Made by a program: the position numbers and the translations under genes. Below the pieces are notes generated by a model. The model saw only the letters and a list, made by a program, of their open reading frames with translations, did no database searches and had not been told where the DNA came from. A stretch of DNA of 64,000 bases from Nemertoderma westbladi (taxonomy: Eukaryota > Animalia > Xenacoelomorpha), in assembly GCA_032718475.1 (NCBI GenBank), contig JAUCBJ010001594.1, forward strand, positions 1 to 64,000, given 5' to 3'. Below are positions 34,523-60,870 of this stretch, piece by piece (the stretch's first letter is position 1; every line of letters begins with the position of its first letter).

Positions 34523-35678
34523 TGTAAAAGCTTTTGCGGACATAACAAGTCATTTTTACGCAATGCGCAGAATACTCTAAAATAGCCCTAAAATTGTTCA
34601 ACTACGCGTCGGACAGAAATTAGAACCAAGATGACGAAATCTGTCAGCTGATTCTTTGTGTACGTGGAGATCCCTTTGTTTGAGCTTATTCGGCCAATCA
34701 GAGCAATCTCCCCGGTTATGCCAGTAGAGACCTACCTGAGGAAACTAGCGCATGCGCATTAGTTATAGTTTTTTCTGAGAATTAGATTCCTCTCAGAATT
34801 CTGTACTAAGTACGGACGTTTCAGACTTTGGCCCAAGAACATCTGATGGCTGGAGTTATAAGGACGTAAATCTATTAACTCATCTCAATACGACCAAACA
34901 AACTTAACATACGCATTGTCATACGCATCACATCGTAACATCAACTCATATGACTGAACACATACTGACTGTTCACCGCACTGTTTTAATGCTGATTTAT
35001 ATTGTGTTAATTGCTGTTTATATTAATGGATGTTATATTTGGAGAATACCGATAAATAATCGTAAACCCCTCAACTTTCTTGATTACTGAGGTAAGCGGA
35101 GGAAGGGTCTACCGGTAGCAACTGTGACTCAAATTATAGTGGTTTTTGTATGAATTAAATGCTATTTCATAATCCCTACGTGTGTCAGTTGCAATCTTCC
35201 ATATATATGATAAAAATCAGTGAAGGTCGGCAAATTAGTGTGAATTAGTGTAAATTAGTGTGAAGTAGTGTGAAGTAGTGTGAAGGTGCGTGAAAGTTAA
35301 TAAAGCATCTCCTAAAGAATGCGCTATTTACGAGATTCCATAACCATCTAGTTGTGATTAGTGTAAGTCATAACTCTGTTTTATACTTAAAGCGCCACGT
35401 CCCAAAGGAACTGTTAATATTTCCCCGAAAGTAAATATAGTTGTCAGAGATTATATAGTAGCGATCAATCGAATAATACAAAGTAGCCTACACCGCAATA
35501 ACTTCCTCTGGAACCCGAATCCAGTCTCCCACACCATGGGTCATACGCCGCGCACGGACTGGCTTCGGCAGATGTAAATTCAGTACACCAGGTAATTGGT
35601 ACGGGCAAAAGTCGATTCATAATTAAAAAGACATTTAAATTGGCAGGCTAAGCTGCTAAAGGTCTAAAAGCGTGAACA
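34523..35678 (+). repeat. 5' LTR of copy A (TGTAAAAG...GTGAACA, 1156 bp)
   Basis: TG...CA ends; homologous to both LTRs of copy B; CCAAT at ~34694, AATAAA at 35299. Confidence 0.9.
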
Positions 35679-35689
35679 TTAATAGATTT
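35679..35689 (+). promoter_or_regulatory. Candidate self-priming PBS of copy A (TTAATAGATTT)
   Basis: Exact reverse complement of AAATCTATTAA at 34868-34878 inside the LTR; no TGG tRNA-type PBS. Confidence 0.7.
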
Positions 35690-36947
35690 CGACTCTTTAT
35701 TGCTTAGTAGGCAATAAAATCAAACGTACTGTTTCGGACGGTAGACTGTAGGCCTATTAACCCGAACCAGTACTTACCCAGTATTATTTGATTGTGAAAT
35801 ATTGTATATTGTAGGCTGTTAGGGGATTAGGGATTGATCACCCCTTACTCCTTTGTATGGTTTACTTATTCCTGTCAGTTTTATTTAGCGGTAAGTGTAA
35901 TATTGAGCAGAAGGCGTGTAAGCCTGCTCAGATTGTATAAATAATTTGTAGGCCGGATTGTTGTCTAACTGTTGTTAGGTCTGAGGCGATTGCAGTGTAT
36001 GTATAGTGTCTTTCCGATAAAGTGCTAGTTAGGAAGGTGGAGGCATCCAGTGCTGTAAGTTAAATCCCCCACGAAAGAATAAGTCGCACACGTAGTTAGA
36101 ACGCTTACAAACTAACCATTTCGGAGATTGCATATACTGTGGTTTATTTAGGCTTGACAGTAGTCTGCCAGCATTTGGTCTGTGTTTTATTTGAATAGTC
36201 TGTACGGGTAGCGTAATATTTATTATTCAGAGTTTATGCAAGTATTTGCAACCTTCATCTCCCCAAGTTTATCCCTTACAGTAATTATGCTTGTTATGCA
36301 TACCGTTATAGTTAAATTAACCCCGGTACTACTTCAGGACTGCTTGGCGTAGGACAGACTGGTAATTTTGTGCTCCAGTCACTCCAGCAGATACCGTGGT
36401 TCTTTTGGCTGTTCACTTATATTTAATTGCTAGTTATATGTTGTATAAGTGCTTGTACCTAATTTAGGGTTTAGAGTAAAGCGCTTTCCTGAAAGTAATT
36501 TAGTGTGTAGGCAGTATATTTGTGTTGTAATGTGGTTAATAGGTCCGTTAGCTCTGGTTGGCTTCGATAATTAACCTCTAGGTATACGACACTCCGGGTA
36601 CATAACGTAGTGCTTATAGTGTAAGACTATAAGCCGTCAGACGGTGGCATTTCCTTATCTGGACAACGCAACGTACTTAATACTACTTTATTGGTTTCAA
36701 ATACCTTAATTTCCTGTCAGTTTGTAAGAACCAGAAATTCTAACTCCTTGTTAGTCTGGTTCGTAAAGTTCTTGTTAAATTACCCTAAAAAAATCTACGT
36801 GTAACTTGTTTATTGTATATTTAGAGATTGTGTAATCTCAACCCGATACGTAAGTAATTTGTAGTGATAAGTAACTTAGTTAAGTAGAATTATCAGTATT
36901 AGTGTCTAACAAGTAGCACACCACTGAGAGCATTCAGCCTCTGTGTA

Positions 36948-37962
36948 CAGTCATTGGTCCATATAAGAGACAGGTTTTGAACTTCGTTGGGTTCTGTGAA
37001 AAAATGTAAACACTGGACTTCCTCAGAAATTATGTAATAAGGGGTTTCCCGGGGCGTAGAATCCATTTTTCCGGGTCTTGAAAGTTGATTTCGCCTAGCA
37101 GTTGCTGATTTTTGAAGAAATGTTGCATGTCTCAAATTTGGCAGCGATTCTCTAATGTGAGACAAGAAATTCAATTGTAATTTTTTTTAATAACTAACAT
37201 GAAATAACCTCATAAATATTACGGAGAATCTTGTTTGGTTCTTACAGCCTTTATTTGAGACAAAAGATCTGTAATTATTTGGCTATAGAAGCCCCTTGAT
37301 GTTGATATTGAATTTGTCTCACGTTTGGGTCCATGTCTCAAATTAGGCAGAACTACCGGTACTACTGTAAGCCTAACCTTACTGAAATCAACAATTTTGA
37401 AGCACTGAAGTAACAGTGTGACTTTTGGAAAGAAGTCAGATGCAATTATAATGTATGTGTATAGGGGGCCTATGGTTTCTATACTTCAGATACTTAGATA
37501 CAAAGGCCTAGCCTACATTTGTGTCTTGTTATGGTTATAATTTCCTTGTCTCAAATTAGGGGAAATTCATGGAAACCGATACCATATTAAAGACAGTAGT
37601 CAAATGTAAAACTATGAAATCTTTACCACATAAAAATAGTTTTATATAAAAATATAGCCTTTTTACTATAAAATGTCATAATTTCGAGAATCAGGTCAAA
37701 GTGGAATGCAAAAATCTCATATCGATTTTAAAACCTTAAAATTTATGAAAAAAAGCTTCGATTTTTGACGGGCCGCTAGAATATTATAAGTATATCCAAT
37801 CCGGTTGAATTATACCTAACGATGTACAGGAATGGTTACAGATCATTATTCAAATTAGTTTTAAGTAGGTTTCTGTAATTATTTGGCTATAGGAGCCCCT
37901 TGAAGTTGATATTGAATTTGTCTCACGTTTGGGTCCATGTCTCAAATTAGGCAGAATGACTG
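36948..37962. mobile_element. Tc1/mariner-superfamily MITE inserted in the leader of copy A
   Basis: CAGTCATT...AATGACTG termini and TA TSD; copy B shows the empty site (ctgtgTAgtgac). Confidence 0.88.
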
Positions 37963-38455
37963 TAGTGACTTCTTACTCAGAAATAATAACATTTATTTCA
38001 AATATTGACAAAACCCATTACGGGTATATATATATATTTATAAATCAACTCAATCAGATTTATAAATTAATAGGCCTGTTATGCATCAATTAGGTCTTTA
38101 TATCAGTTGAACTACTGGTTAATATTAGTAATAAAGTAAAAGGAAGTAATCCCTAAAATTTGGATAATCAGTTATTATTAAATAATTGACATTACCGGTG
38201 TTTACGGTAAGCTTATTATATTTATATAAAATAGGCTAAACTTATATACCGGTATTCTGTGACTAATCATAGTCTGTACTGTAATAATACTGATATATAT
38301 AATATAGGTGTATACCGGTATTTTAATATTAAATATATACCACGTTACATTGAGTAGCAATATCGGTAACTACTAGACTGACAGTTGATACTGATTTCCC
38401 CTAGACAAGCTTTAACTGTTATTATAGTAATAGGCATTCAACTATAAAATAAATT

Positions 38456-41400
38456 ATGTCTGACACAAAACAAGCACTGTCAGATAGTCTCTTGGAATCT
38501 ATTATCGGCACTAGGGCTCAAGTGTAACTCTATTTCCGACACCGAAGAGTTAATGCCCGAGATCGTAACAAGGATGGAAGAAGCGGTTTATCCAGATCCA
38601 CTTCTAATTCTTCCTGGAGCAGTGCTCACTAGATTACTTATAGCTGTAGAAGAAAATCAAGCGGATTGGATGAGAAATAAGAGATCGACCAGGGACAGTT
38701 ACACGGGCTACCCGATGGAAGAACTAAGGTCTATTGTAGAGATTCAATGGAACTTCCACGGACCCGGACTCCCGTTTAACTTATTGGAAGCTGCCTGGGA
38801 AGACTTATACCAAATGGGAGTAGTGAGGGACACCCGAGATCCCACTGTATGAAAGAGGTCAGCAGCAGGATATGTCCAGGGATTCTTCAACTCCTCGGAA
38901 CGAACAGAAACGCGGTTATTTCCACAACCACAGGGACCTCAAGAGCAGGGAGCACTGCTTTACCAAGTAAGATAATGTATATTGAGGATCAGATTAATCC
39001 TTTCAGCCTTTGAAGAAGCCTCGAAGAGAAGTCAAGACACGTCGCTGCAGGTGGCTGTAAAGACTTGGTTCCAACGAGTCAATGTTGAAGTCCAGGGATC
39101 AACACAATGGAAGTGACTAATGGACTAACTGAACGCATAACCCACGGAGAATCAACCGATGCAACCTTTTCTCATGTGGAAGGCGAGGCGGTATCCGAAA
39201 AACCTCAGAATAAGGATGCTATTGACATCTATTTGTCGGATTATCAACAATTTATAGGTGACAAAGAGCTAAGGAGACGTCTAGCTGGACTTCACCCCAA
39301 TAGTGAAGGAGCCAAATTCATACTGGACTCTTTAGATGCGGATACATTAGCTGCGGAGCAGGCTAAATTTGATGAAAGCATTCTCATCGCAATGGACCAA
39401 GAAAAAAATAAAAGGAGGCAAATAGAAGACCAAAAAGCAGCAGCGGCAGCGGCAGCGGCAGCGTCAGCGGCAGAGGCTGAAAGAAAAGAGGCAGCGGCAG
39501 CAGCAGAGGCTGACAGAAAAGCGGCAGCGGCAGCGGCAGTGGCAGAAGCAGAACAGAGGGCATCTGAAGCGACAGTCCAACTAGAGTTGGAGAACCTTCA
39601 GGCGAAACAAGATTACTTAAATAAACAAAGGGCAGCTACTCAGATGCAACTACAGAGTCGATCTACTCCCAGAAGACAGGGATTTACCTCCTCGGATGAA
39701 GGTGATACAACTGATCCTGAAGGTAAAGGTAATAAATCTCGTCAAGCGGACATAGAAGAGCACCTCACAGGCATAAGTTGCCTAACTTACCCCCTGCGGT
39801 GAAAAGGGAGCTAGCTATTGTAGACTTAAGTAATAGATAACCAACAGCCCAAATTATAAGAGTAGAAAGACTCCCTACTATAGTAGATGAGCCAGAAATA
39901 ATTAGGCCTGTTAGCGAAGCCACTCCCTTAATAGAGACACCTTTGCTCCCAGAACCTAACTCTCAATTCCCTATACACAGTACCAAACTACCTGTGCCCA
40001 GTAGACAACTGACAGAATCTCAGACTGTTATCGACACCGAGCAAGAGATAATAAATCGATTGTCTCCTGTCATCCCGATGTGCCATCCACCTACGATGTT
40101 GGCGACTCCCGCCTCCGCGGTGGAGTGGATGGACGAGGGACGACGGGAGATGGAGGAATTGCTCGGGCAATTGGAAGAAAATATTGCGAGATCTTCCAAA
40201 CAAGTCCGAGAATTGGAAGGGACTGTTCAGCTGTTAAAGGTAACAGTAAGAGAGAGTAGGTTAGAGCTGCAAGAAGTACAACAAAATATCGCTCTCGAGC
40301 GCGATAAATTAGTAAATATAAAATGGGTATACCACCACCCTCGGTAACAATGTGTCAGCCAGTTAGGTCTGAAGTATTTCATGCGCAAGGTATGGAGCCT
40401 ACACGCATCTATACTGCTAGCGAAGTAGAAACTCCGATAGCAAACCATATTAAGGGTATTAATAAGCCTGTTGATAATGATATCCCATACCGATCTGATA
40501 ATAATCCGAGAAATTTATATACCGATAATTCGATATTAAATAATATGATGGCTCAAGAAAGTTTTACACGTCAGATGGCTAGAATGGAAGCCCATCAAGC
40601 GGTAAAGAATGAGATGAAATGGTTACCTTTTAATGAATATTACAAAGATAACATACAGAACTCCGTACTATCAAGCGGAGAGAAACTATGATTCCTCATC
40701 GAGTGCTTGGAAGGACCTCCCAAGTTAATGGCGTTAAAGTTTATTGGACATCCAGACGGATTGAGACAAGTTTGGCTATAATGACATAAGCTAACCGACT
40801 AACATAGCTAGATATCTGTATGTGAAATTAGTAGCGCGCCCGAAAGTTTCTTAGCAGCGGGATTATAGAGTTTCCCGATGAGATTCAGGAGATCTGTAGA
40901 CAGCAAGACTGGTTGGGTAAGTCTCAGGAATACCAGGGTTCTATGGTTGTAGGAGCCGTAGCATCAACTTTGCCAAAGGGTGCAAGAGGTACTCGCTGGG
41001 TCAAAAAGGTTCTCTATCTGATGGACCAACAACATAGAGACCCCACCATGGATGACCTCATGTCGTTCTTAAACGGAGAGGTAAGATTACAGCTCCTAAA
41101 ACAGTCTAGAGAGAAGACACCAGAAAGTAAAAATGAAAAAAAAGAAAAGAAAGTGAAAAACCCGTTACTAGGAGAAAGGTAACACCAGTGTGTTAAACAG
41201 ATGATTACGAAAGCCAAACGTCATATGACGAGAACAGTGGCAAGGACACCGAGAGATCTTACTACGTAAACAAAGTTAGGAAAGACGTAAGTAAATCTAA
41301 GGCTCGAACCAGTGGCAAGAGGGAACAGATGACAACTCCCCCTACGTCTCCTAAGAGAATTCATGGAAGGAAGCCCGAAGAAAGAGCTAGCTTACAAAAC
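38456..41400 (+). pseudogene. BEL/Pao gag of copy A (stops, frameshifts, deletions)
   Basis: Colinear with copy B gag: MSDTKQ start, poly-Ala coiled coil, KWLPFNEYY..LSSGEKL capsid-like region. Confidence 0.88.
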
Positions 41401-41404
41401 ACAA

Positions 41405-42213
41405 TATGATATATCATCGTTGTCTGTATGACTTGTAGAGCGATCCATCGAGATATGGTGAATGATCTATCTACCAACAGCTTCATACTGAGTTTACGCC
41501 GACAAATCGCTCATTTTGGGACTAGCAACACTATGAGATCTGTCAAAGGAACTAATTTCATTGGCGCCAATAACGAGATTAAAGCTTACGTAAAGGATTG
41601 GAACCAAAGACAGGTGGACGATCAGCTAAGAGTAACAGCATCTAGCTGGACCTTCAACGCCGCCGACGCCCCTTGGTGGGGAGGAAGTTGGGAGAGACTC
41701 ATACGTAGTGTAAAGACCGCATTTCACTTTATAGTGCCGTGCCGCGCGTATCTCACCGACGAACTTTTGCAGACGTTAATGGAAGAAATTGCCGCATATC
41801 TAAATGAGAGACCGCATATGCCAGTCTCATCTAGTCCCGACTCCCTAGAAGCGCTAACACCCGCGCATTTCCTACTAAAGAAACCTGTAGCCATGCTCCT
41901 GCAATCGGAAATAACAGACGGAGACGAATACTGCCGACAAACTTGGCAATTTATGCAGTTAATATCCCGTCGTTTCGCTGACCATTTCAAAAAACATTAT
42001 CCTACGCTACAACTTCGAACAAAGTGGTTTGCGCAGCAACAAAACGTCAGCGCAGGAGACATGGTCCTTATCGTGGAATCAGATATTCCCCGTAAGAGGT
42101 GGCAGACAGGTCGTATCATCGAGACTCATATATCCGATGATGGTTTAGTGCGATCGGTAGAACTCATCGTCATGCGACGTAACTTTAAGAAACCTGGAAT
42201 TGTGTTCGAAACG
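41405..42213 (+). pseudogene. BEL/Pao integrase core/C-terminus of copy A (continues at 59656-59798)
   Basis: CRAIH, GTNF, APWWGGSWERLIRSVK, LTPAHFL and GDMVLI..WQTGRI motifs. Confidence 0.9.
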
Positions 42214-43293
42214 TTTTCGCGCTTTTAGACCTTTAGCAATTTAACCTGCCAATTTTAGTTGTCCTCTTGTTTATATATCGACTTTAGCCTTTTACCAATT
42301 ACCTAGTGTACTGAAGTTACATCAGCCGAAGCCAGTCCGTGCGCGGCGTATGACCCACGGTGTGGGAGACTGGATTCGGATTCCTTGAGAGTTATTGCAG
42401 TGTAGACCTACTGTATTATTCGATTGATCGCTACTATATAATCTCTGACAACTATATTTACTTTCGGGGAAATATTAACAGTTCCTTTAGGACGTGGCGC
42501 TTTAAGTATAAAAACAGAGTTTTGACTTACTAATCACAACTAGATGGCCACAGAGTTTCGTAAATAGCGCATTCTTTAGGAGATGCTTTATTAACCTTTA
42601 CACTACTTCACACTAGTTCGCACTAATCTGCCGACCATCACTGAATTTGATCATATATAAGGAGGATCGCAACTGACTCATGTAGGGATTATGAAATAGC
42701 ATTTAATTCACACAAAACCACTATAATTTAAGTCGCAGTTGCTACCGGTAAACTCTATTCCGCTTACCTCAGTAATCAAGAAGATGGAGGGGTTTATGAT
42801 TATTTATTGGTATTCTCCAAATATAACATGAATATCCATTAATATAACAACAATTAATAGGTACTATAAATAGAAGTAAAATAATGTGGTGAAATGTTAT
42901 GTGACCAGTATGAAATAAGATAGGTAGGTCAGGATAATAGATTTACATTCTTATAATCAAGGCCATCTGATGTTCCTAGACCAAAGTCTGGAACTTCCAC
43001 ACAGAAGCACAGAAAATTCTGAGTTTGTTCTGATGCTCAGAAAATAGTAAACAAAGACCGTAATGCATTGCGCGAGTTTCCATAGGTTTCTGTTAGACAT
43101 AAAGTGAAAATTGCTCTGATTGGCTGAATAAGACAGAACAAAGAACCTCCACGTCCACAAAGAATCAGCTGACAGATTTCGTCATCTTGGTTCTAATTCC
43201 TTCCCGTCGCGTAGTTGGATAAATTTAGGGCTATTTTAGAGTATTCTGCGCATTGCGTAAAAATGACTTGTTATGTCCACAAAAGCTTTTACA
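42214..43293 (-). repeat. 3' LTR of copy B (1080 bp; terminal CA mutated to AA)
   Basis: Direct repeat of 58531-59655; abuts the TSD. Confidence 0.93.
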
Positions 43294-43371
43294 CCACTCC
43301 CAGAAAATGGGATTTAAGTCTATAAAATATAAAAAATCACAGTTTCTAAAATACAAAAATACTCTAAACTA

Positions 43372-46300
43372 TTAGTCCTTCTTTCGTGAACGGCATTTAC
43401 GAAGTTTTTTGAGGCTAGTAAGAGTCCTTTTCTCTTTGTGGCGAGCCACTTTACTAGGAGGGCTATAACTCCTGGGTGAGGGGTGCAATACAATTGCATT
43501 GGAAGGTTTCGGATTATGGTCGGTGTATCTGCCGGTCGAGGTACCCAGTTGATCGATATCAACCTCAGAGGAATGAGGTCGAACAACCTTTAGAGCGCGT
43601 TTCAGGACAGCAGCTCTTACTGGTCCCTGACGGGTCATTTGCACGAGAGCGGTAGGTTGACTGTGAGTAGTGAGAAATTTTCTCGGTTTGATGGTTCTTT
43701 CCAACTCGCGTTCTCGGGCTTTATATTCATAGGGTCGTCTATGAACTTCCTGTAGCTCTGGATGCGAGTTTATGAACAAGTCACCATATTCCGGCTCTTG
43801 ACGGATGAAGTTGATCAAGTTATAGGAATTAAGATTGTTAGGATTAATATTCCTAAGGTACTTGCGAACAAATTTAGTCGAAATATTCTCGCCAACACGT
43901 TTCATTAGCTCGTAGCTAGGGGTGCAAGATTTTTGCTCAACGGAAGCAAAGAGAAATGGGTGAAACGCATAGACTCCTTCATAGGCACGTCCAGGATAGT
44001 ATCGATGACGTGATTCGCAATGGAGATCCGCGTTAGCTTTCCAGGCTCTGATATAACGCAGGGCAACCATTTCGTCTACGCTTTCTAGATCTCGGTTGAA
44101 AGGGCAATCAAAGCTTGCGTGTCCTTTAAACTGGCAATGATGACATTGAGTCATAAATTGAGGACAGACTGCGAAGATGTGTAGATTATTAAGCCTACAA
44201 TATGCACAATAAATCTCCATATAAGGTTGATCTTTAAAGTAGGAGCAGGGTTCGCTGGAGTCCACCGGGGTAAAGTGATCTCGGGATGCGCATAGTCGGC
44301 AACGTTTCCTAGATACATAATTGGCATGTCGATATTCGTATGCTGTGAGACATTGTGGACCTTGATACCATTCCAGCACATAATCTCTGTCGCTGCTCCT
44401 GGGTGCTGTGGGTTGCATCTCCTCGGACTCCAAGCAAATTGGTTCGTCTTCCAATTGCATAGCTGAGGTAGGTGTAGCTGTCTCCTCAAGCGAACCCACT
44501 GTTTGAACTTCCACGATAGAATAACCTGTGGGGATTCAGGGTCTTTGTATGACAGATGAATGTAGGTTCTGTATACAAACGTCCTTAAAAATGGCGAATC
44601 CAGCGCTGTCTAACTTCTCGGCAGCTGAGTCTCTTAAGGTGAGCTTGGTCAGAGCGCGGTCCTTGAACTGACTATCAACGTTACGGAACGGAGTCAGAAA
44701 GCGCCTAAAGCATTAGAATCAGATGAATTTATTGTGTTCATCTAGCTTGGCGAGTTTGGTTCCAAGTAACAAGGGATGGGCGCGTATAGTGCGACTGCAC
44801 ACATCGGCTAGCCAACCGGCAAGTGTGGCGTTCTCGAAGATAGTGTATATAGCTAATGAGGGATGGAGTGGAACACTCATAAAGCTATACACGATGCCAG
44901 GTGCGGTTAATGGTCCGTCGAAGTATAATCGAGAATAATGATCTCCATATACTTGTTGGTAGCTGACAGGGTTTCTGACTTTGAAATTCCATCCGTATTC
45001 TTGGAAGGCAAGATGTCCGATAGAGGTTCATTGTACTTTATTGATGCCGCTGGATGTATTAGCATACATAGTTCGGAAGAAACCTCGGCCTTCTGCCCAG
45101 GGAGCAATCAGCTGGGTGTCTACGAAAGGATAGGGGATATTCTCCATGTTTCTGAAGTCATTTTGGAGATCTCCATAAACAGCTGAGCCGATTTTAAGGA
45201 TTCTCTCGTCAAACAGCATCTCGAGCACTGGCTGGGGTAGCATCGATCCATCTATACCCATGGCCGGTTTGCGCTCGGTAACGGTAACATAACGCTGCGC
45301 GAGTTCGAATTGTCCATGTCGGAGTTTCTTTTGTATCTCGGTGAGAGTCTCAAAAGAATAATCGACCAGATCGAAGAATAATTTCACCATATAATATTGA
45401 GTTAAATTGACATAATAGGGGTGATCTTTGATTCCATAAAATGAGTTCGGTAAAGGTCTAGCGCGTAGGTTGACCTCGTGTACCAGACGACGGACAAGAT
45501 CCGCTCGATTGTCCAGAGGTTCAACGAGTATACCTTCGACACGAGCGGCCTCGATTGGCGGACGTTGTAACATAGGAGCGTCAGCGATAAGATCTCTAGA
45601 TCTTAAGTTGATATCAACCAGCTGGGGTTGTACCGTGGCGAAGAGTTTGTCTCCAAAATGGGGAACCATCGAAGGATGAATGATGGTTTTGGAATAGAGA
45701 TCAGTCATAAGGATTTGAGATTCTGGTTGGGCTAAAGCTGCTTCTTCTCTCTCGTCCATTTTGATGTGCTTCTCCTCGAGCTGATTTTCCTCCGCTTGTC
45801 GTTGGATGCGTTCGTCCAAAAACTCTTGCAGAGAGTAGGTTCGTCCAAGTTCGATATCTTCTTCGAGATTATGGATTTCCCGATCGAACTGAGGTAAAGC
45901 TAATTCTTTTACTGCTTGGACTTGTTGTTGCAATTTACATTTGTCTAAACAATCGTAGGTTCCTTTTCCAATCTTTTGTCGAATAGCGTCTAATGTGTTT
46001 TGTACAATGCTCTCCTCTACCTTGGTGACGGGTTGTATCGGGGTTAAACTGGGACGATTATATGGGTTGAACGGCGATATTAGATGTCCGCGTCCCAATC
46101 CGGCTAGGTAGGATGGGCGAATATCTAGGGAGCCCACAACCGGAGTGCCACCGACTAATTGTTCGGGTAACACTAGATCTTTGAACAATGAATACAGTTC
46201 AGGAGGATCCGTCATACTACAAGGATCAAGAGTCTGAGGTCTCACCAGGGAATGAGGAGGTCTGACCGAGTATTCCGGAACTCTGATCATAGGTTTGTTT

Positions 46301-47122
46301 AAGGATCGTTTGAGTCGAGTGAGCGTGGGTGTTACGTCGAACAAGTTTCGCTCGAAACTCCTGTAAGTATAGCGAGTAAAACTGTGTTTAGCGCAACGTC
46401 TCCGCGGATGTTTATGTCTTTCCGTTTGTTGGTTGGTTCTAGGGCATTCATCGCAATAATACCAAAGACGCACGTCTTGTAGGGGAAACGCGGGTAATCT
46501 TTCTCCAGTTTTACAATATTCCTCCATCTGTTCGAAGCTATCCGGTACAACAGGTAGCGGTCGATCGGCGGTAAGATACATCATAGTGAAATAGAGTCGC
46601 TTGAGTTCTATCATAGGGTTATGATGTATACCTTGAGGATATCGAGTTTCTAGATTTTGTTGACTGGCTACATTGAAATATGTTTCTCTCAAGAATTCCA
46701 AATATTCGTTGAAGTCACTGCGTTTATCCGGCTCTTCAACGTCTTCTCTTTTGAGTTGGTTTTTGAATAGAATTTTAATGTTCGATTCTCAGTTTATCAT
46801 TCCGACTCCGCTGGGTATGATATTTAAATAGGATCATTTCCCTTTCGGTGTCTACATCGTCCGTGTCGTGTAAATCGATAGGATGACCAGTAGTTAAGAA
46901 GTCCATATACATACCATTACGATGCGTATAGCGAGCGGTGAATTTTCTATAGTCCAATTCACGCATGAGCTGTTCCTTTGACATGGGCGGTTCGATATAA
47001 CGGCCATCGTCCTCCGTAGTATGTTGACTAGCGTCGCCGCTTATTAAACTATCAAAAAACGCTTGCAATAGTAGGGTATATCGCTCCCTGATACCAAGAT
47101 CATCTTCTATCAACTCAGTCAT
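43372..47122 (-). pseudogene. Extra ORF of copy B (~1250 codons reconstructed): DEDDy 3'-5' exonuclease-like domain + three zinc knuckles
   Basis: ORFs 45028-46701 and 43372-44514 are in the same frame, separated by four stops (3 TGA, 1 TAA); 46775-47122 joins through a stop and a 1-nt insertion absent in copy A. Motifs LPQPVLEMLFDERILKIGSAVYGD, FVDTQ, SIGHLAFQEYGWNFK, PLHPSLAIYTIFE; CRLC..H..C, CAYC..H..C, CHHC..H..C. Confidence 0.75.
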
Positions 47123-48539
47123 GGTTGCTATATGAGTTTATCGATATTATAATTAATAATAAATAGGCTAGCGGTCGTCGCTGCCTCCCCTTCAGTACCC
47201 CCGGACAGCGCAAGATCCTCAGTGCTGATGTACTGTCGTCGCTGTGCCTCTCGCCAACGTAGTAGCTACACAACGACAACAATAACCAGCGCGAGTCACT
47301 CCACTGTCCGTCCCAAGGGCTTAGATTTACTGGAGGTTCTTGCTACAGAGGCAGGGTAACTTTCACAACTGCGACTCGCTACTATAAACACACTTTAGTA
47401 GTAATATTCACCTATAAATACATAAATTCCACACTCCTGTCACAATTTGTACATATTCGGGCCATTTGTCCGTTAGTCAAGTGCCTTCCAGAATGCCATG
47501 TTATTATTATGTATCCCTGGATTCTAGCAGGGTGCTATTTATTCCGCATGCTATTCAATGGGACAAGCTTTCTATTGTTCTTTTAACTCGCTTCTAATTC
47601 TAGCGTGGTTGTTGCTATGGTGACATTATGGAAAGCTAGCGGTAGAATGAGGGTAATTCTCATGCATACAGATCTGGGATGCTATTTAATAGTAATTCTT
47701 TAATTGTCAATATTCCCTTTATACATGATTTTATGAATTTTATCGGCTATTGACTGTACACTGGAGATTCTCGCACACTAATATACTTAATAGGGTGAAT
47801 CTCCGCTCCCATGATCTATTAATTAATGGAATTTTGGGAATGTTATAAATTGTATAAAATGACAATTTATCAAATTCATGAGAGGATATGAATTTAAAGT
47901 TTATTCCCGTAAATTTTATTATTTGATATTAAAATAGACACAATTTCATTCCATTCCAGGGTGCCGCGATATCTTAATCGACTAGAATTTCAGATGGTCA
48001 AAGGGTTTAACAGATTTATTTTGCGTTTCAACGCTACTGTTAAATGGACATCATTCTACTATATGTATTATTTAAGATACGGTATGAGAGCAATATTGCA
48101 AGAAGCAATGTCAGTGAGAAGAGGCAAGTCATCTCCAAGGTCTACCCAGAGCTTGGTTTAGCCGAGACACGAGGATCTGAACTTTGCATTCCTAATACTC
48201 TACTTACCAATAATACTTGAGTATAGTAGGGGCGGTATTGTACTTTTAATAAGTACGGACATTTCATCTTACTGTAGTCACGTATTTATAGTATGATACG
48301 GACAGTAAGGAAGGAGAAAATGAATTTTTTCTCGCCGTTAAACTAAGTATATTATGCTAAGTAATTAAGTAATAAACACGAATATATTGCACTAATCTAC
48401 TGAATAATCGTTAAAATATTATTCTACTAAATAAAATTAAAGATAATGATTATAATAAAATTACATAATAATACATACATAAATATAAAAATAATAAAAA
48501 AAATAAAATAATGTAGTCACACACCCACTCCAAATGCTG

Positions 48540-51500
48540 TTACGTTGGGGAGTCCCTAGATGTTTGTTGGATTAGGGAGGTGGTCGTGGGAAGAGTATCT
48601 TGCCTTCCATAGTTCCCGGACAACTCTCGGTCTCTTTCCAGTAAACATAAACGACCAACTGGGCGATTAAGTTGTTGTGTTTCGAATACAATTCCAGGTT
48701 TCTTAAAGTTACATCGCATGACGACGAGTTTTACCGATCGCACTAAACCATCATCGGATATATGAGTCTCGATGATACGACCTGTCTGCCACCGCTTACG
48801 TGGAAGATCTGATTCCATGATAAGGACCATGTCTCCGGCGCTGACGTTTTCTTGCTGCGCAAACCACTTTGTTCGAAGTTGTAGCGTAGGAAGATAATGT
48901 TTTTCGAAATGGTCAGCGAAATGACGGGATAATAACTGCATAATTTGCCAAGTTTGTCGGCAGTATTCGTCTCCGTCCGTGATTTCCGATTGCGGGAGCA
49001 TGGCTACAGGTTTCTTTAGTAGGAAATGCGCGGGTGTTAGCGCTTCTAGGGAGTCGGGACTCGATGAAACTGGCATAAGCGGTCTCTCGTTAAGATAGGC
49101 GGCGATTTCTTCCATTAATGTCCGCAAAAGTTCGTCGGTGAGATACGCGCGGCACGGCACTATAAAGTGAAATGTGGTCTTCACGCTCCATATTAGTCTC
49201 TCCCAACTTCCTCCCCACCAAGGGGCGTCGGCGGCGTTGAAGGTCCAGCTAGATGCTGATTTCTTCCATTAATGTCCGCAAAAGTTCGTCGGTGAGATAC
49301 GCGCGACACGGCACTATAAAGTGAAATGTGGTCTTCACGCTCCGTATTAGTCTCTCCCAACTTCCTCCCCACTAAGGGGCGTCGGCGGCGTTGAAGGTCC
49401 AGCTAGATGCTGTTACCCTTAGCTGATCGTCCACCTGTCTTTGGTTCGAATCTTTCACGTAAGCTTTGATCTCATTATTGGTGCTAATGAAGTTCGTTCC
49501 TTTGTCGGATCTCATAGTGTTGCTAGTCCCAAAACGAGCGATCTGTCGGCGTAAACTCAGTATGAAGCTGTTGGTAGATAGATCATTCACCATATCTAGA
49601 TGGATCGCTCTACAAGTCATACAGACAAAGATGATACACCATCGCTTGACTATAGTCCTAGCATGATATACTTCAATAGGGCCAAATAAATCCATACCAG
49701 TATTAGTAAAGGGTGGTTCATAGAAGCTTACTCGTTCCCTAGGTAATTCTGCCTCTCTCTGTGTTAAAGGCCTACTAAATGCTTTACTACAGGGTATACA
49801 GTTCCTAAGAACTTGGTTTAGAGCTCTACGGGGCTTATGGAAATAATAGCGAGTTCGAATTTCGCTAAGATCTCGTTCTCTACCAGCATGGTAAAGTCTA
49901 CTGTGAACATCTACAATCATCTTGATTTGTATTTCAAGATTTCTAATGAGTATGGGAAACTTAGTGTCAAAGGACAATGGATCATTAGTTAATCTCCCTC
50001 CGACACGTATTAACCCATCTATCATTGTGCTAGAGAAACGATCCCTTAAGCGCATCTGTGGATTTCTCAACAACAGGAAATACTTATCGGAATCTTCGTA
50101 GTATTGCAGGAGTCTCAGTATCTGCTTATTGGTATCCTCATGTTCTTGGTAACTGATCTTCTCAGTCAGGAACCTATCAGACACTTTATATGTGGGAAGG
50201 TCTTTAATAACATGGATCTTTTCGGATATTATTGGAGCGGCATCACTAGCGATCTTCGTCCTGGAATAGTGATGATGGAAACATCTTTTCAGATACACAA
50301 CAGCCTTGCAAAGCCGATTCCAGGAGCTATAATGATTTATTGCTCTCTGTTGGAGAGGGGAGAGTCCTTGCGAGACATCTGGTGTTCCAGATTTCCAGTC
50401 TCTTTCCCTGATGTCTATAACGGATTTAGTCGTGATGGGTGAGTTTAGATCCACAGCGTTGTCCCCGGAGGTGTGTAGTACAGACAGATCTATCATGGGT
50501 TTAAATAACTTTGATTTACTCGTCCAGGTTTTAGGTTTGACTTTCTCCACTCCCTTGGCTTGTCTAATCTCCGCCGTGGTGAGATGAGGGGCCATTCCTC
50601 CTCTTCTTTACTCAGGTCCCACCTAACCAGTCTGGAGTATCTATCAGTTCTTGAGGAGTTGCTCCTCTAGAGGCGATGTCAGCTGGATTAATCGTCCCAG
50701 GGCAATGTCTCCATTGATCTACATTAGAGCAACTGAGTATAATGGCTACTCTGTTGGTAACGAAGACGCTGAACTGACAGACTTCATTTGTTATATACTA
50801 CAGAACAAGTAAAGCATCAGTCCAATAGACAGTTCTCTCTAGTGGATAGTCGATCTGTTCTGTTACATTCTGGCTGATGGCTGTAGTGTATAGAGCCGCT
50901 TTTAACTCCGCTCTAGGAACTCGTAGTTTGTTGTTTATTAGGGCCTTAGAGGCGACCAAGGCAACTTTAATTCCATCCGGAGTTTCAACCCTCAGGTAGG
51001 CTACTATACCTATTCCCATATCGCTGGAGTCTCCAAACACATGGAGTTGATAGGAATACGAGGGTCGGACGTGACCAAAGTATGAACAGGAAATCTTAAA
51101 GTTCTCGATGAATGGTAGAGAATCTTCCCATTTCATCCACTTCTTTAGCAGTTCTCCCTTAAGTGGATCATCCCACGAGTGGTTTTCGAGCCACATTTGT
51201 TGCACTAAGCTCCGAGCAACTAATATAACTGGGCTAATAAATCCTAATGGATCGAAATAAGTGCTCAGGATACTTAGACAAATCCGTTTAGTTCTAACTG
51301 GATTATCTCGTTATTTTAACTGAAAAAACAAGATATCTCTCTCCGTGTCCCATTTTAATCCAAGTGTCTTGGTTTCCGGAAGATCGTCCTTGATGAGGTC
51401 CAGATCTTTAACACCTCGGTCTTCTACCAGAATCGATTCCAGAAACTCACGGGAGTTACTAGTGAATTTGGTTAGCCGAAATCCACCGCGTTGCAAGCAC

Positions 51501-53112
51501 TCTACCGTTCCCTCGGCAACATCAATGGCTTCTTCCACCGATGGGAGGGACTTTAAATTGTCGTCCATGTATATATCCCGTTTGATGTTGTCGATAACCG
51601 CTTTAGAGAAGGCGTCTCGGTTGTCATCGGCAGTGGTACGCACCACCGAACAAGCGTTCGTGGGGCTCGAGATGATCCCGAAAGCCTGGATGGTCATCCA
51701 GTACTCCACCGGTTTTCGGTTGAGGTCTCCTTCGGGCCACCACAGAAATCGTAGGCTGTCTCCATCCCTATCCAGCGCCTTGACTTGTAAGAACCTGCCT
51801 TCGATGTCCGAAGCGAATGCGATAGAATATTGCCGCAGTCTTAGTAATATTCCCAACAAAGATTGGAGTAAGTTGGGTCCCGGCAACAGTTCTGAATTCA
51901 GGGATTGACCCATGTAAAGGGCGGAGCCGTCGAACACTACCCGGACTTCGTTAGGTTTACTGGGCTTGGGAACGTAATGATGTGTTAGATAATACGTTCT
52001 CTCCATTATGGGTGTTTCTTCCGGAACTCGCTCCGCATATCCCTTATCAATAAATTTCTTCAGTTGGGTTTTATATATTTCCCTGGCTTGAACGTTAGCC
52101 GTCAGATGCCGATGTAGTTGTGCGATTCTCTTTTCCGCTAAAGGTCGGTTATTTATGAAGCTGGGTTCTCGCCGTCGGAACGGAAGACCAATCTCATAGC
52201 GACCTTCGTCATTCAGATAATGTGTAGTCGTTTCCTGAATCTGCTTGGCTCTCTCTTCCTTGACAGACAAGGGTTTGTCGTAGGAATTGGGCTCTACGGC
52301 TTCTTAAGTAAAGAATCGTACAGTGTGTTCATCGCGGATTTTGTTATTGTATCGATCTATCACTTCATTTAATTCATCGTTATAGGTAAATTGTTCACCA
52401 GGTTGATTGATAAGATGGCATAGGTTGACTTGGTTTAACCAAATTTGGTTCTCAGTGAGGATCTCGATGACATTTTCCTCATCATACAAGTGGTTGATGT
52501 CGTCGTTGTCTGAGGAGTATGGAGTTTCCTCAGCTGGGATTTCTTCTTCACTGATTTCTTCTTCCCATTCACTCACCTGGTGGATTTGTTCTTTTGGGAG
52601 TCTTTCCATTAAGGTCCTATGGGAAGGTCCAGTGAAGTACTAACCTACTCTCGTTCTTCCCGCATACGTCTGAAGTGGTTGCGGTCGAGCAGGCCGTTTT
52701 TCTAATGTCTCAAGCGCTTCGTGCGCATTTTGTCCGAGTAAGATCTGCATCCCTGGATAATCTGTGTTGAATCTATATGAGGTTGCTGGGTAAAATGATC
52801 TTCATCCCAGTTGTAAGGCTCCACTTGGCTAGTAGCAAAGTTCTTTATTGCCACCATCTTGACCGACCTTACACTATTTTCTCCTAGTTCATCCTGGGGA
52901 GTGGACAACGCACCCACGTAGTAATCTGTAACTACTGTGGATTTCCAAACCTGCATAATTCCGGAAAGGTTCAACTTGGTTCGGAACTTTGGTTGACCTG
53001 CAAAGATGTCTTCGGCTAGTTCTTTATCGATAAAAGTGCCTGTGCTGCCGGAGTCAAGGAGGGCGTTTACTATCAAGCTCTTCCCTATCCCATGGACCCT
53101 CAGCTGCACCAC
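48540..53112 (-). pseudogene. BEL/Pao pol of copy B (protease, RT, RNase H, integrase), disrupted
   Basis: ALLDSGS protease; RVVFDG, GPNL, LRFLW, FG..SSP, YMDD RT; HVFGDSS..VPRAEL..WTDA RNase H; HHCC, DLFGP, SDKGTNF integrase; ~153-bp tandem duplication at 49106-49411. Confidence 0.95.
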
Positions 53113-53163
53113 AGGGAATTCTCGGATACCAACCGATGAAGTTGGTGCTTTCCAAGATGGCTG

Positions 53164-56100
53164 TCAATCCGGAATAGACAGTTGGGCATCTTCTCCTTCC
53201 ATTTCTGTCTCGTACGTAAGTGCTCGATACACAGCGGTGTTGATCATATAACAGGATTCATTTTCGTCGGAGAATTCGTCCGTGTAGAATCCTTCCATCT
53301 CCGAACTGTGGTCAGTATCGTTCACATCACTGAATTGGACATGTAGTTTGGGCTCACTTACCTGACTTGTGCAGGTTCTGTCAAATTCTGTGTGCAGCAA
53401 GATATGATGTTTCACGCCGCACTTAGCACACTTCGCGTCTGAGTAACAGGTTTGTCGTTGATGTCCTTGTCTGAGACAATTATAACACAACCGCTTATCC
53501 CACATGACATCACGTCTATCCTTCAGGGATTTCTTTAAGAGTTCATCACACCCACTCAAGCGATGTGGCCCGTCGCACAATACACATTTGGGTTTGATGT
53601 TACTTACTTTAACCTGTGTTGTGTTGTGCACACTTGTTCTTTCTTCGGGCTTTCTTCCATGAATTCTCTTAGGAGACGTAGGAGGAGTTGTTACCTGTTC
53701 TCTCCTGTCACTGGTTCGAGACTTAGATTTACTTACGTCTTTCCTAACTTTATTGACATAATAAGATCTTTCGGTGTCCTTACCGCTGTTCTCATCGTAT
53801 GAAGTTTGGCTTTCGCCATCGTCCGTATAACACACTGGTGTTACCTTTCTTCTAGTAACGGGTTTTTCACTTACCTTAATTTCCGGTGTCTTCTCTCTGG
53901 ACTGCTTTAGGAGTTGTAATCTTACCTCTCCATTTAAGAATGACATGAGATCAGCCATGGTAGGGTCTCTTTGTTGCTGGTCCATCATATAGAGAACCTT
54001 TTTGTCCCAGCGAGTACCTACTCCACCCTTTGGCAAAGTAGATGCTACGGCTCCAACAACCATAGAACTCTGGTATTCTTGAGACTTACCTAACCAATCT
54101 AACTGTCTACAGATCTCCTGAATCTCATCGGAAAACTCTATAATCCCGCTGCTAAGAAACGTTCGGGGCGCTACTAATTTCGCATACAAATACCTAGCTA
54201 TGTTAGTCCTATTACCATACCTGATGTTTAGCGTATCCCAAACTTGTCTTAATCCGTCTGGATGTCCAATAAACTTTAACGCCATTAACTTGGGAGGTCC
54301 TTCCAAGCACTCGATGAGGAATCGAAGTTTTTCTCCATTGGATAGTACAGAGTTCTGTATGTTATCTTTATAATATTCATTAAAAGGTAACCATTTCATC
54401 TCATCTCCATTGAACTTGATGACCTCTCCCACCTTTACCGCTTGACGGGCTTCGGTTCTAGCTATTTGACGTGTAAAACTTTCTTGAGTCATCATATTAT
54501 TTAATATCGAATTTTCGGTATATAAATTTCTCGGATTATGATCAGATCTGTATGGGATATCAATATCAACAGGCTTATAATTACCCTTAATAGGGTTTAC
54601 TATAGGAGTTTCTACTTCACTAGCAGTATAGATGCGTGTAGGCTCCACACCTTGCGTATGAAATACTTCAGACCTAAATGGGTTGACACATTGTTACAGG
54701 GGGTGGTGGTATACCCATTTGTATATTTACTAATTTATCGCGCTCTAAAGCGATACTTTGTTGTACTTCTTGCAACTCTAACCTACTCTCTCTTACTGTT
54801 CTCTTTAACAGCTGAACAGTCCCTTCAATTCTCGGACTTGCTTGGAAGCCTGGTTTTTGGTGCTTTCCAGCTGTCCAAGCAACTGATTCATCCCCCATCG
54901 TCCCTCGTCCACCCACTCAACCGCAGAGGCGGGAGCTGCCAACATGGTAGCCGGGTGGCACATAGGGACGACGGGAGACAATTCATTTATAATGTCTCGC
55001 TCGGCGTCCAGGACTGGGTGTGATTCCGGGGCTTGTCTACTGGGCACAAGTAGTTTAGTACTGTGCAAAGGGAATTTAGAGTTAGGTTCTTGAAGTACAG
55101 GGGTCTCTATCAAGGGTGTGGCTTCACTAACAGGCCTAATTATTTCGGGCTCATCTACTATAGTAGGGAGTCTTTCTACTCTAATAATTCGGTCTGTAGG
55201 TTCCTGATTACTTATGTCTACATTAGCTAGTTGCCTTCTCACCGCAGGAGGTAAATTAGGTAACTTCTGACGGTATGGTGCTCTTCTACATCCGCTAGAA
55301 CGAGATTTATTACCTTTACCCGCGGGATCCGTTGTATCGCCTTCATCAGAGGAGGTAAATCCCTGTCTTCTGGGAGTAGATCAACTCTGTAGTTGCATCT
55401 GAGTAGCTGCCCTTTGTTTATTCAAGTAATCTTGTTTCGCCTGAAGGTTCTCCAACTCTAGTTGGGCTGTCGCTTCAGATGCTCTCCATTCTGCTTCTGC
55501 CACTTCTGCTGCCGCTGCCGCTGATGCTTTTCTTTCAGCTTCTTCCGCTGCCGCTGCCGCTGCCGCCGCCGCTGCTAACTTTCGGTCTTCTATTTGCCTT
55601 TTCTTTATTTGTTCTTCTTGGTCCATTGCGATGAGGATGCTTTCATCAAATTTAGCCTGCTCCGCAGCTAATATTTCCGCATCTAAAGAGTCCAACACGA
55701 ATTTGGCTCCCTCACTATTGGGATGAAGTCCAGCTAGCCGTATTCTTAGCTCTTTGTAACCTATAAATCGTTGATAATCCGACAGATAGATGTCAATAGC
55801 ATCCTTCTTCTTAGGTCTTTCGGATATTGCTTCGCCTTCCACATGAGAAAAGGTGGCATCTGTTGATTCTCCGTGGGTTATGCGCTCAGTTAGCTGAACT
55901 TTCCATTGTGTCGTTCCCTGGACCTTAACACTCACTCGTTGGAACCAAGTCTTTACAGCCACTTGCAACGATGTGTCTTGGCTTCTCTTCGAGGCCTCCT
56001 CAAAGGCTGAAAGGATTAATCTGATCCGCAAGATTCGTTCTCGCACTTGATAAAGCAGCTCTCCCTGCTCTTGAGGTCCTAGTGATTGTTGAAATAGATG

Positions 56101-56757
56101 TTCTTCTAGTCGTTCCAAGGAGTTAAAGAATCCATGGACATATCCTGCTGCTGACCTCTTCCATACAGCTGGATCTCGAGTGTCCCTCACTATCCCCATT
56201 TCGTATAAGTCCTCCCAAGCAGCTTCCGATAAGTTAAACGGGAGTACGGGTCCGGGGAAGTTCCATTGCGTCTCTACAATAGACCTTAGTTCCTCCATCG
56301 TGTATCCCGCATAACTGTCCCTGGTCGATCTCTTATTTCTCGTCCAATCGGCTTGATGTTCCTCCACAGCGATCAATACTCTAGTGAGTACGGCCCCAGG
56401 AAGAATTAGAAGTGGATCTGGATAAACCGCTTCTGCCATCCTTGCTCTGATCTTGGGCGTTAACTGTTCAGTGTCGGAACTACTAGAGTTATTCTGCTGT
56501 TGAGAAATAAGTTCTCGGCTCGGGTGCTGCTGCTGTTTAACAGCCGTCTCTTGGTCTCGCTTAACTTGAGATCTAGTGCCTATAATAGAGCTAGGGTGCT
56601 TTACTAGCCTAGGGTCTGATACCACTACTGTAGGGATGACCTTTCTCACAGTAGGAGGGGACTTGGACTTCTGTCTGAGATGTTCGATACTTTTATCTGG
56701 GTCACAGATCGTTCTTTCTAGGAGACTATCTGACAGTGTTTGCTTTGTGTCAGACAT
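53164..56757 (-). pseudogene. BEL/Pao gag of copy B with long N-terminal extension
   Basis: FNGDEMKWLPF..EKLRFL..LEG..RYG capsid-like region and the BEL/Pao triple Cys-His array CVLC/CYNC/CAKC..HHILLH. Confidence 0.92.
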
Positions 56758-58519
56758 GATTTATTTTATAGTTGAATGCCTACTACTATAATGACAGTTA
56801 AAGCAAGTCTAGGAATTCAGTATCAACTGTAAGCCTAGTAGTTAGTTACCGATACCGTTACTTAGTGTAATGTGATATATATATAACATTGAAATACCGG
56901 TATACATTTATAGTATATATAAGTATTATTTACAGACTAGGATCGGTCACAGAATACCGGTATATAATTTCAGCCTAAATTTATATAAATATAATAAGAT
57001 TACCGTAAATACCGGTAATGTCAATTATTTAATAATAACTAAATTTCTGAATTTTAGGGTTACTTCCCTTTACTTTATTACTGATATTAAGCAGTAGTTC
57101 AACTGATATTAAGACCTAATTGATGTATGACAGGCCTACTATTTTATAAATCTGATTGAGTTGATTTATAAATATATAGATATATATATACCCGTACAAT
57201 GGGTTTTGACAATATTTGAAATAAATGTTATTATTTCTGGATAAGGAGTCACTACACAGAAGCTGAATGCTCTCAGTGGAGTGCTACTTGTTAGACACTA
57301 ATACAGATAATTCTACTTTACTAAGTTACTTATCACTACAAATTACTTACAATCAGGTTGAAATTACAATCTCTAAATGAACAATAAACAAGTTACACCT
57401 ACAAGTTTTAGGGTAATTTTACAAGAAATCTATGAACCAGCCTAACAAGGAGTTAGAATTTCTGGTTCTTACAAACTGACAGGAAACTACGGTAGTAGAA
57501 ACCAATAAAGTAGTAGTAAGTAAGTTGCGTTGTCCAGATAAGGAAATACCACCGTCTGACGACTTATAGTCTTAAACTCTATAAGTACTACGTTATGTAC
57601 CCGGAGTGTCCTTACCTAGAGGTTAATTATCGAAGCCAACCAGATCTAACGTACCTATTAACCACGTTACAACACAAATACTGCCTACACACTAAATTAC
57701 TTTCAGAATGCACTGTACTCTAAACCCTAAATTAGGTACAAGTACTTATACAACAAATAACCAGCAGTTAAATATACTTGAACAGCCAAAAGAACCACAG
57801 TATCTGCTGGAGTGACCGGAGCACACAATCACCAGTCTTTACCTATGCCAAGCAGCCCTGATGTAGTACCGGGGTTAATTTAACTATAACGGTATGTATA
57901 ACAAGCACAATTACTGTAGGAATAAACTTGGGGAGTTGGAGGTTGCGAATACTCGCATGAACTCTGAATAATAAATATTACGCTACCCATACAGACTATC
58001 TAAATAAAACACAGACCAAATGCTGGCAGACTACTGTCAAGCCTAAATAAACTACAGTATATGCAGACTCCGAAATGGTTAGTTAGTAGGCATTCTAACC
58101 AAGTAGTACGACTTATTCTTTCGGGGGGGGGGGGGGGGGGGGGATTTACCTTACAGCACCCACCTTCCTAACTAGCACTTTATCGGACAGACACTCTACA
58201 CACACTGCAATCGCCTCAGACCTAACAACAGTTAGACAACAATCCGGCCTACAAATTATTTATACAATCTGAGCAGGCTTACACACCTTCTGCTCAATAT
58301 TACACTTACAGATAAATAAAACAGACAGAAATAAGTAAATCATACAAAGGAATAAGGGGTGATCAATCCCTAATCCCCTAACAGCCTACAATATACAATA
58401 TTTCACAATCGAAATAATACTGCTGTACCTGTAAGTACCGGTTCGGATGTTTAGGCCTACAGCTTACAGTCCGACCGGTATATTCAACTTTATTGCCTAC
58501 GGTGCAATAAAGAAACTTA

Positions 58520-59655: not shown

Positions 59656-60806
59656 AAACGCAACAACTTAATCGCCCGGTTGGTCGTTTATGTTTACTGG
59701 AAAGAGACCGAGAGTTGTCCGTTAACTATGGAAGGCAAGAGACTCTTCCCACGACCACCTCCCTAATCCAACAAACATCTAGGGACTCCCCAATGTAACA
59801 GCGTTCGGAGTGGGTGTGTGACTACATTATTTTATTTTTATATTTATGTATGTATTATTATGTAATTTCTATTATTATAATCGTTTTCTTTAATTTTACT
59901 TAGTAGAATAATATTTTAATGATTATTCAGTAGATTAGTGCATTATATTTCGTGTTTTATTACTTAATTACTTAGTATAATATATTTCGTTTAACGGCGA
60001 GAAATAATTTCATTTTCTCTTTCCTTACTGTCCGTATCATACTATAAATCCGTGACTACAGTAAGATGAAATGTCAGTACTTTTAAAGTACAATATACCG
60101 CCCCTACTATACTTAAGTATTATTGGTAAAGTAGAGTATTAGGAATGCAAAGTTCAGATCCTCGTGTCTCGGCTAAACCAAGCTCTGGGTAGACCTTGGA
60201 AACGACTTGCCTCTTCTCACTGACATTGCTTCTTGCAATATTGCTCTCATACCGTATATTAAATAATACATATAGTAGAAAGATGTCCATTTAACAGTAG
60301 CATTGAAGCGCGCGCAAAATAAATCTGTTAAACCCTTTGACCATCTGAAATTCTAGTCAATTACGATATCGCGGCACCCACTGATATACTTGAAAGACAA
60401 ATTTCTAGAATCAGTGGTTAACGTCCCCAGACATGTTCTGGAATAAATCGGTGCCCATCCTAAATATTAAATATTTGATAAATATTTACAACGTTTGTTA
60501 TAACAAATGTTAAAATAGAGGAAATGCTAACAAATTAAATCTAAAAATTATAAATTAAATTTGTTAAACCTTTAGATCCTCTAAAATTTTAGTCGATTAA
60601 GATATCGTAGTACTTACCGATACTCTTAAAAGACAAGATTCTGGAAATAAGGATCCTAGTCCCCAGACATGTTCTGGAATAAAACTGTGTCTATTTTAAT
60701 ATCAAATAATAAAATTCACGGGAATAAATTTTAAATTCATATCCTCTCGTGAATTTAATAAATTGTCATTTTATACAATTTATAAACATTCCCAAAATTC
60801 CTTTAA

Positions 60807-60839: not shown

Positions 60840-60870
<31 letters not shown>

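Follow-up and report, generated by a model that had tools for sequence, protein, structure and literature searches.

The stretch of DNA analysed here (the window; 64,000 nt from Nemertoderma westbladi, assembly GCA_032718475.1, contig JAUCBJ010001594.1) contains two members of one LTR retrotransposon family, recognised by self-comparison of the window and inspection of the ends and designated copies A and B (Table 1). Copy B is complete, occupies 59655-42214 of the minus strand (17,442 nt), and is inserted in inverted orientation within copy A, where its target was the region coding for the C-terminal part of A's integrase. The insertion is bracketed by a 5-bp target-site duplication (TSD), and the target site is confirmed by B itself, in which the corresponding region reads without a break. 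Both copies are broken: the gag-pol region of B is fragmented into open pieces, and A is missing about 4 kb of central pol relative to B (41404 matches 53619 and 41406 matches 49642), with its DUF5641 domain recognised by Pfam at 41410-42225. The 5' and 3' LTRs of B differ at 24 of 1078 aligned sites and are 97.8% alike over aligned columns, while 11% of aligned sites differ between the LTRs of A and those of B. An earlier note on this DNA had the LTR ends set by the TSD and by LTR-LTR comparison, which holds for B; the TSD fixes B only, and the ends of A's LTR rest on LTR-LTR comparison because A's 3' LTR and TSD lie beyond the window.

Several further features accompany the two copies. A segment of about 1 kb found in A only (36948-37960) carries 85-nt direct repeats, the 3' region of A includes a 164-nt tandem array (60316-62162), and a 154-nt duplication lies in B's integrase (49104-49412). 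Elsewhere in the window an intron-less ORF of 528 aa (16334-17920, plus strand) has a rhodanese domain (Pfam) and an HCEFSSER motif, and is presumably Cdc25/string-like. Tandem arrays are found at 7596-15535 (23-nt unit, about 7.8 kb), 1949-3215 (17 nt), 18420-20225 (21 nt) and 21765-22465 (41 nt). A non-LTR reverse transcriptase (RT) fragment (RVT_1) followed by a second ORF that lacks a Pfam match occupies 25469-27005 (plus strand), and this second ORF has what we take to be a Penelope-like look with a GIY-YIG-type end. An open frame of 390 aa at 28557-29729 (minus strand) likewise has no Pfam match.

Table 1. Features of the two nested retrotransposon copies, in window coordinates
Feature	Position	Strand	Basis or remarks
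Copy A 5' LTR	34523..35678	+	TG...CA, 1156 nt; alignment with both B LTRs
CCAAT box	34694..34698	+	in GGCCAATCAG; also present in B; candidate element of an upstream promoter
TATAAG	34857..34862	+	sole TATA-like hexamer upstream of the 11-mer; kept in B
Candidate self-primer of A	34868..34878	+	AAATCTATTAA
Splice-donor-like GAG/GTAAG in LTR	35092..35097	+	kept in B
Candidate poly(A) signal	35299..35304	+	the only AATAAA in the LTR; also present in B
U5 hairpin	35640..35659	+	TTGGCAG/CTGCTAA; stem the same in all three LTRs, loop variable
PBS position of A	35679..35689	+	TTAATAGATTT, without TGG
Copy A internal region, left part	35679..42208	+	self-comparison
Two leader hairpins past the PBS	35696..35773	+	stems kept in B, the second with one T-A to C-G change
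Left target-site copy	42209..42213	+	AAACG, insertion of B into A
Copy B 3' LTR	42214..43293	-	1080 nt, terminus AA rather than CA; AAATCTATTAT at 42944-42934
Polypurine-tract-like sequence	43294..43301	-	GGGAGTGG; adjoins the B 3' LTR
Extra sense-strand ORFs of B, pol to 3' LTR	43372..47137	-	open stretches of 586 aa and 387 aa
Copy B gag-pol, several open pieces	48540..56760	-	DUF1759, protease (weak), RT with YMDD, Peptidase_A17, integrase H2C2, DUF5641
PBS position of B	58530-58520	-	ATAATAGATTT
Copy B 5' LTR	58531..59655	-	1125 nt; self-comparison, end inspection
Candidate self-primer of B	59306-59296	-	AAATCTATTAT
Right target-site copy	59656..59660	+	AAACG
Copy A internal region, right part (3' region, leaves the window)	59661..64000	+	inverted match to 46216-48682

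The family was assigned to BEL/Pao in the earlier note, and the protein evidence agrees. Pfam domains follow one another in the gag-PR-RT-RH-IN order of BEL/Pao: DUF1759 (E 4.4e-12), a weak Asp_protease_2 (0.0018), Peptidase_A17 (2.7e-36), Integrase_H2C2 (1e-06) and DUF5641 (1.2e-21). Copy B also shows the LTRs, the polypurine tract (PPT, GGGAGTGG) and the TSD of a BEL/Pao element. At E<=1e-20 the RT piece matches 697 longer proteins; among the 120 listed matches, identity to it is 39-47% and nearly all carry PF05380, and those that are named come from corals, bivalves, echinoderms and fishes. The pol domains are those of BEL/Pao and differ from the pol of Ty3/gypsy chromoviruses.

Between pol and the 3' LTR, copy B carries additional ORFs on the sense strand, and a region of extra sense ORF is also seen in copy A at 63080-64000 (plus strand). 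No homolog of these ORFs was found at E<=0.001 among 7991 candidates of near lengths. The second one (387 aa) is Cys-rich with a weak zinc-knuckle match (E 0.0034), and a PDB search with it gave no match. By a hydrophobicity test the extra ORFs are not env-like, since no hydrophobic segment was found.

The primer-binding site (PBS) of the family is unusual. As the earlier note claimed, no TGG-type PBS is present, TGG being absent from the 8 nt that follow each 5' LTR. Instead, the bases that adjoin the LTR are the exact complement of a stretch inside the LTR of the same copy, and the four 11-mers of A and B were all found where that note had placed them. In both copies the first base to pair is the one that follows the LTR (offset 0), and the pairing ends at exactly 11 nt and encloses a loop of 765-800 nt. 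The B-type 11-mer is present in B's 3' LTR too (42944). Crossed pairs, in which the LTR of A is matched with the PBS of B or the reverse, pair over no more than 5 or 7 nt at offset 0, and the one position at which A and B differ has indeed changed on both sides, this being a single terminal pair compared between two copies. The note's further observation that the LTRs diverge just after the 11-mer was also reproduced, with an ungapped A/B identity of 7/40 after it vs 29/40 before it; similarity falls right after the PBS 11-mer as well (4/10 ungapped).

How often such an arrangement would arise by accident can be judged in several ways. In dinucleotide-shuffled LTRs an 11-nt complement at offset 0 occurred in 42 of 20000 cases for A and 41 of 20000 for B (P ~0.002), and when offsets 0-5 were allowed in 74 and 195 of 20000, respectively. 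Real internal positions with such a complement, the PBS counted, number 2 of 6522 in A and 4 of 15226 in B. Long-range helices of at least 8 bp within the LTR of A plus 150 nt amount to 267, and among the 53 that are kept whole in B the helix of primer and PBS is the only one with a compensatory change. Together with the start of the match exactly at the first post-LTR base, where a primer must bind, this argues against the reading in which the complement is due to chance, or reflects a contact outside priming (packaging, dimer formation, a poly(A) switch) while something else primes. Such a reading has points in its favour: events with P of 0.002-0.01 are expected when very many LTR elements are scanned, the covarying pair is a single one, and the helices kept whole in both copies include others of 12-14 bp. 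A double change by chance is moreover not negligible given 11% LTR divergence and the adjacent diverged block, our estimate being 3-25%. On balance, a non-chance origin of the complement is supported by the sequence comparisons, and we consider the chance or non-priming reading rather unlikely.

RNA folding adds no specific support for a priming contact. The duplex of primer and PBS is weak (-7.9/-8.0 kcal/mol). It appears in the minimum-energy fold of B with a pair probability of ~0.58 at 37 C, and is missing from the predicted fold of A (pair probability 0, cost 2-7 kcal/mol). Folding is uninformative here, as the duplex is also found in loop-shuffled folds (21/40 for A, 28/40 for B). A search modelled on the three-duplex 'pretzel' described around the Tf1 PBS (bioRxiv 10.1101/2022.12.06.519325, partial text) found no shared helix joining the end of U5 to the bases that directly follow the primer. 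Two candidate helices link the LTR and the leader: one pairs 35106-35114 with 35739-35747 and shows 1 compensatory change, 2 one-sided changes and 1 break, and the other pairs 35466-35479 with 35781-35794 over 14 bp and is invariant. In both copies the 5' arm of a leader hairpin (35695-35702) can alternatively pair with the LTR AATAAA (35298-35305), and in the predicted folds this is a possible switch that would mask the 5' poly(A) signal. Rfam gave no match at 34400-36600.

Evidence from beyond the window, stronger than the single covarying pair, comes from distant relatives, for which the best 80 of 582 confirmed BEL/Pao loci in metagenome contigs were taken. Their RTs are 36-45% identical to that of the window, and in a quick tree, built without named references, the window RT sits on a long branch outside the relatives rather than nested among them. 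Comparison of the 5' and 3' copies fixed the 5' LTR end in 14 families; four of these ends were set by eye, 1-9 nt inside the limit of the BLAST match. Of these 14 families, 13 carry a self-complement of 10-15 nt that begins 2-5 nt beyond the LTR, and the same test is positive at 20 of 6678 internal control positions in these elements. TGG is found in only one of the 14. This is the failing family (L035), where it lies at offset 1, with a 10-nt junction match that uses a non-consensus donor. The letters of the PBS vary widely among the relatives and track their own LTRs; there are 10 distinct motifs in all, with one motif shared by four families. The LTRs of three related loci (L003, L055, L060) end in TA, not CA.

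Only three of the 13 positive families have a contiguous complement, and in the other 10 it spans a predicted splice junction within the LTR. These splice-type loci (L003, L009, L014, L017, L029, L041, L050, L052, L058, L060) have putative GTRAG...YAG introns of 76-366 nt in the LTR, and their predicted junctions give PBS complements of 11-15 nt, of which just 4-9 nt come from the upstream exon. The splice rule, GT(A/G)AG...(C/T)AG, was set after first results had been viewed, and the null uses the identical rule. A further 44 loci whose LTR ends are not fixed include 15 with a complement of at least 11 nt, five of these at offset 0; this count, from 901 candidate positions with no null, is kept outside the evidence. 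In the window family itself a splice-built primer was considered and rejected: a loose search gave only weak donor/acceptor pairs, the strict rule gave none, and there is no strong splice acceptor in the window LTR under that rule. The 11-mer starts two bases after a donor-like GT (AC/GTAAAT, 34866-34871) that is kept in all three LTRs.

The relatives bear on the window family in two ways. Since distant elements repeat the trait with different letters, which also counts against a chance or non-priming match, self-priming in some form is likely. Their sequences make self-complementary PBSs a common feature of this part of BEL/Pao without proving the case for the window family, which pairs at offset 0 over a loop of 765-800 nt and differs in both respects from the 13 positive families (offset 2-5). 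The proposal of the earlier note that this BEL/Pao family primes itself therefore stands as regards its classification, the missing TGG and a complement beyond chance, and it lacks support as regards the exact Tf1-like transcription start, as set out below.

Priming at the PBS by a host tRNA fragment (a half-tRNA) or another small RNA is improbable. In its favour, the ICTV gives for Belpaoviridae an 18-nt PBS complementary to the 3' end of tRNA-Arg or tRNA-Gly (PMC8742986), and half-tRNA priming exists in copia lineages (PMC6317226, partial text). Against it, a mature tRNA 3' end does not fit a site that lacks TGG, the match to the LTR would be a coincidence at P ~0.002, and under an invariant host primer the PBSs of A and B would not be expected to differ in step with the LTR, nor those of the relatives to differ widely while tracking their own LTRs. 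ARAGORN found 0 tRNAs in the window.

The position of the 11-mer within the transcript is addressed by the promoter signals of the LTR. TATAAG starts 11 nt before the first base of the 11-mer and is conserved in all three LTRs, and the CCAAT box, which we take to be a candidate NF-Y site, lies at -174/-179 relative to the 11-mer. With ordinary RNA polymerase II spacing, TATAAG would direct initiation to a point directly past the 11-mer and CCAAT to one about 70-110 nt before it, and neither gives 34868. No TATA-like hexamer lies at about -30 from the 11-mer in the window LTRs. Among the relatives, none of 21 examined has one 25-35 nt before the primer, and five of 16 splice-type loci have one 56-167 nt upstream of it. 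Moreover, the complements that span a splice junction (10 of 14 relatives) would not be an RNA 5' end unless the first exon were 4-9 nt long.

These observations bear on a strict Tf1-like reading, in which transcription would start at the first A of the 11-mer and the capped first 11 nt would serve as primer. The earlier note predicted this start (34868), and the promoter spacing and the splice-built complements of the relatives, which indicate internal primers in this branch, do not support it. The reading stays alive because in both copies the pairing breaks off sharply at the 5' boundary of the 11-mer, as it would at an RNA 5' end; length 11 and offset 0 are as in Tf1 (PMC7175516, partial text), and the sequences diverge directly past nucleotide 11. 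We regard it as unlikely. An internal primer released by cleavage fits best with the promoter spacing and with the splice-built primers of the relatives, as far as sequence can tell.

In yet another reading TATAAG is a real TATA box and the 11-mer belongs to U3, so that the primer would come from the 3' LTR part of the RNA, of the same or a partner molecule, or from a second, upstream start that serves genomic RNA only. The conserved position of TATAAG at -11 in all three LTRs agrees with this, as do the alternative starts of Tf2 that include or exclude the self-primer (PMC5341516, partial text), which also make a primer-less transcript from a second start possible. A cut in the 3' U3 would, however, be expected to cut off the R acceptor that the same molecule requires for strand transfer, and a precedent was not found; we consider this origin of the primer very improbable.

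Copies in the host genome were sought in four public DNA runs, in which the family is present as short contigs (3146, 1935, 1233 and 63 contigs placed), and no listed contig spans both the primer and the PBS sites. Contig joints that leave the sequence of A at 34877-34882, the end of the 11-mer, make up 6 of the 15 joints listed (18 total). One contig carries the B-type T at position 11, and in one run (X4) two contigs depart from A at 34850-34852, before TATAAG and the 11-mer. Summed contig depth at 35285-35480 is about 100-200 times that of the primer region in three runs, a measure that is not equivalent to copy number, and this suggests many diverged subfamilies or a derived repeat. Viral contigs yielded no true relative. 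A 20-nt pattern from the LTR end matched once in genome contigs and once in viral contigs, both times by chance.

The sequence of events that we propose for the window family is as follows. Transcription, probably under the control of the CCAAT region, would begin upstream of 34868, and the 11-mer would pair with the PBS over the loop of ~800 nt, the PBS being kept open between the U5 hairpin and the leader hairpins. A nuclease, by analogy with Tf1 the element's own RNase H, would then cut after nucleotide 11 to provide a 3' OH, from which RT would copy U5 and R before jumping to the 3' LTR. Plus-strand synthesis would finally copy the primer into a new PBS. Such copying alone would maintain the complementarity of the two sites and would explain the double change between A and B. 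That the primer comes from the element's own RNA, with the 11-nt LTR stretch lying inside the transcript some tens of bases past its start, is to our judgement about an even prospect. The window family would be the intron-less, zero-offset form, whereas its relatives would mostly build the same trait across an LTR splice junction. There may equally well be, or not be, a large animal branch of BEL/Pao that has dispensed with tRNA priming and excises its primer from an internal part of its own RNA, mostly after splicing, with the window family as an intron-less member that uses an 800-nt loop and no spacer.

If true, this would add a third mode of priming to those by tRNA and by the 5'-terminal primer of Tf1, and would extend self-priming to a third LTR superfamily and to many aquatic animals. 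It would explain why PBS finders fail on these elements, would presumably place such elements beyond control by tRNA fragments, and in the splice-built relatives would tie reverse transcription to host splicing. It also bears on whether self-priming or tRNA priming is older, a question raised in the available part of PMC3601003. No report of self-priming in BEL/Pao was found in the openly available papers searched, and the words 'PBS' and 'tRNA' are absent from the main text of both the Sinbad paper (PMC554778) and a survey of metazoan BEL/Pao elements (PMC3118150).

Belpaoviridae as described by the ICTV share with the window element the gag-PR-RT-RH-IN order, the BEL/Pao-specific Pfam domains, TG...CA LTRs of 1.1-1.2 kb, a PPT and a 5-bp TSD. 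They differ in size (4.2-10 kb vs 17.4 kb for the window element), in lacking extra post-pol ORFs, which in the window element belong to no known family, and in their 18-nt tRNA-Arg/Gly PBS, for which there is no counterpart in the window copies (PMC8742986). That PBS is also missing from 13 of the 14 relatives, so this branch falls outside the description, and the element is filed here by its protein domains. Replication of the family is described as poorly understood (PMC8742986), and insect BEL/Pao elements such as Achilles use tRNA-Tyr (PMC4580426, partial text).

The closest mechanistic parallel is offered by Tf1, Tf2 and Tj1 and the Tf1/sushi group of Ty3/gypsy chromoviruses, which likewise lack a tRNA PBS and have an 11-nt LTR segment that complements the bases after the 5' LTR (PMC7175516, PMC4600332, bioRxiv 10.1101/2022.12.06.519325, each in partial text). 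The window element has the same LTR-adjoining PBS with its complement of ~11 nt in the LTR, yet it belongs to BEL/Pao and has a loop of ~800 nt. In Tf1 the transcript's first 11 nt serve as the primer (PMC7175516) and the PBS is copied into cDNA (PMC11042837), according to the portions of these sources at hand; promoter spacing in the window element argues against a 5'-end primer, and its relatives, unlike Tf1/sushi elements, would mostly build the primer across a splice junction. Self-priming has also been predicted for the gypsy element Tcn1 and for plant TAR copia elements (Houba, Osr-1) (PMC6317226, PMC4600332, partial texts). There the complement is at least 10 nt long and starts 0-5 nt after the LTR, as in the window element; these elements belong to other superfamilies and another kingdom, and the available text of PMC6317226 names no BEL/Pao or splice-built case. 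They show that self-priming has arisen outside Tf1/sushi before, and by analogy the window element would work like Tf1 while standing outside the Tf1/sushi lineage.
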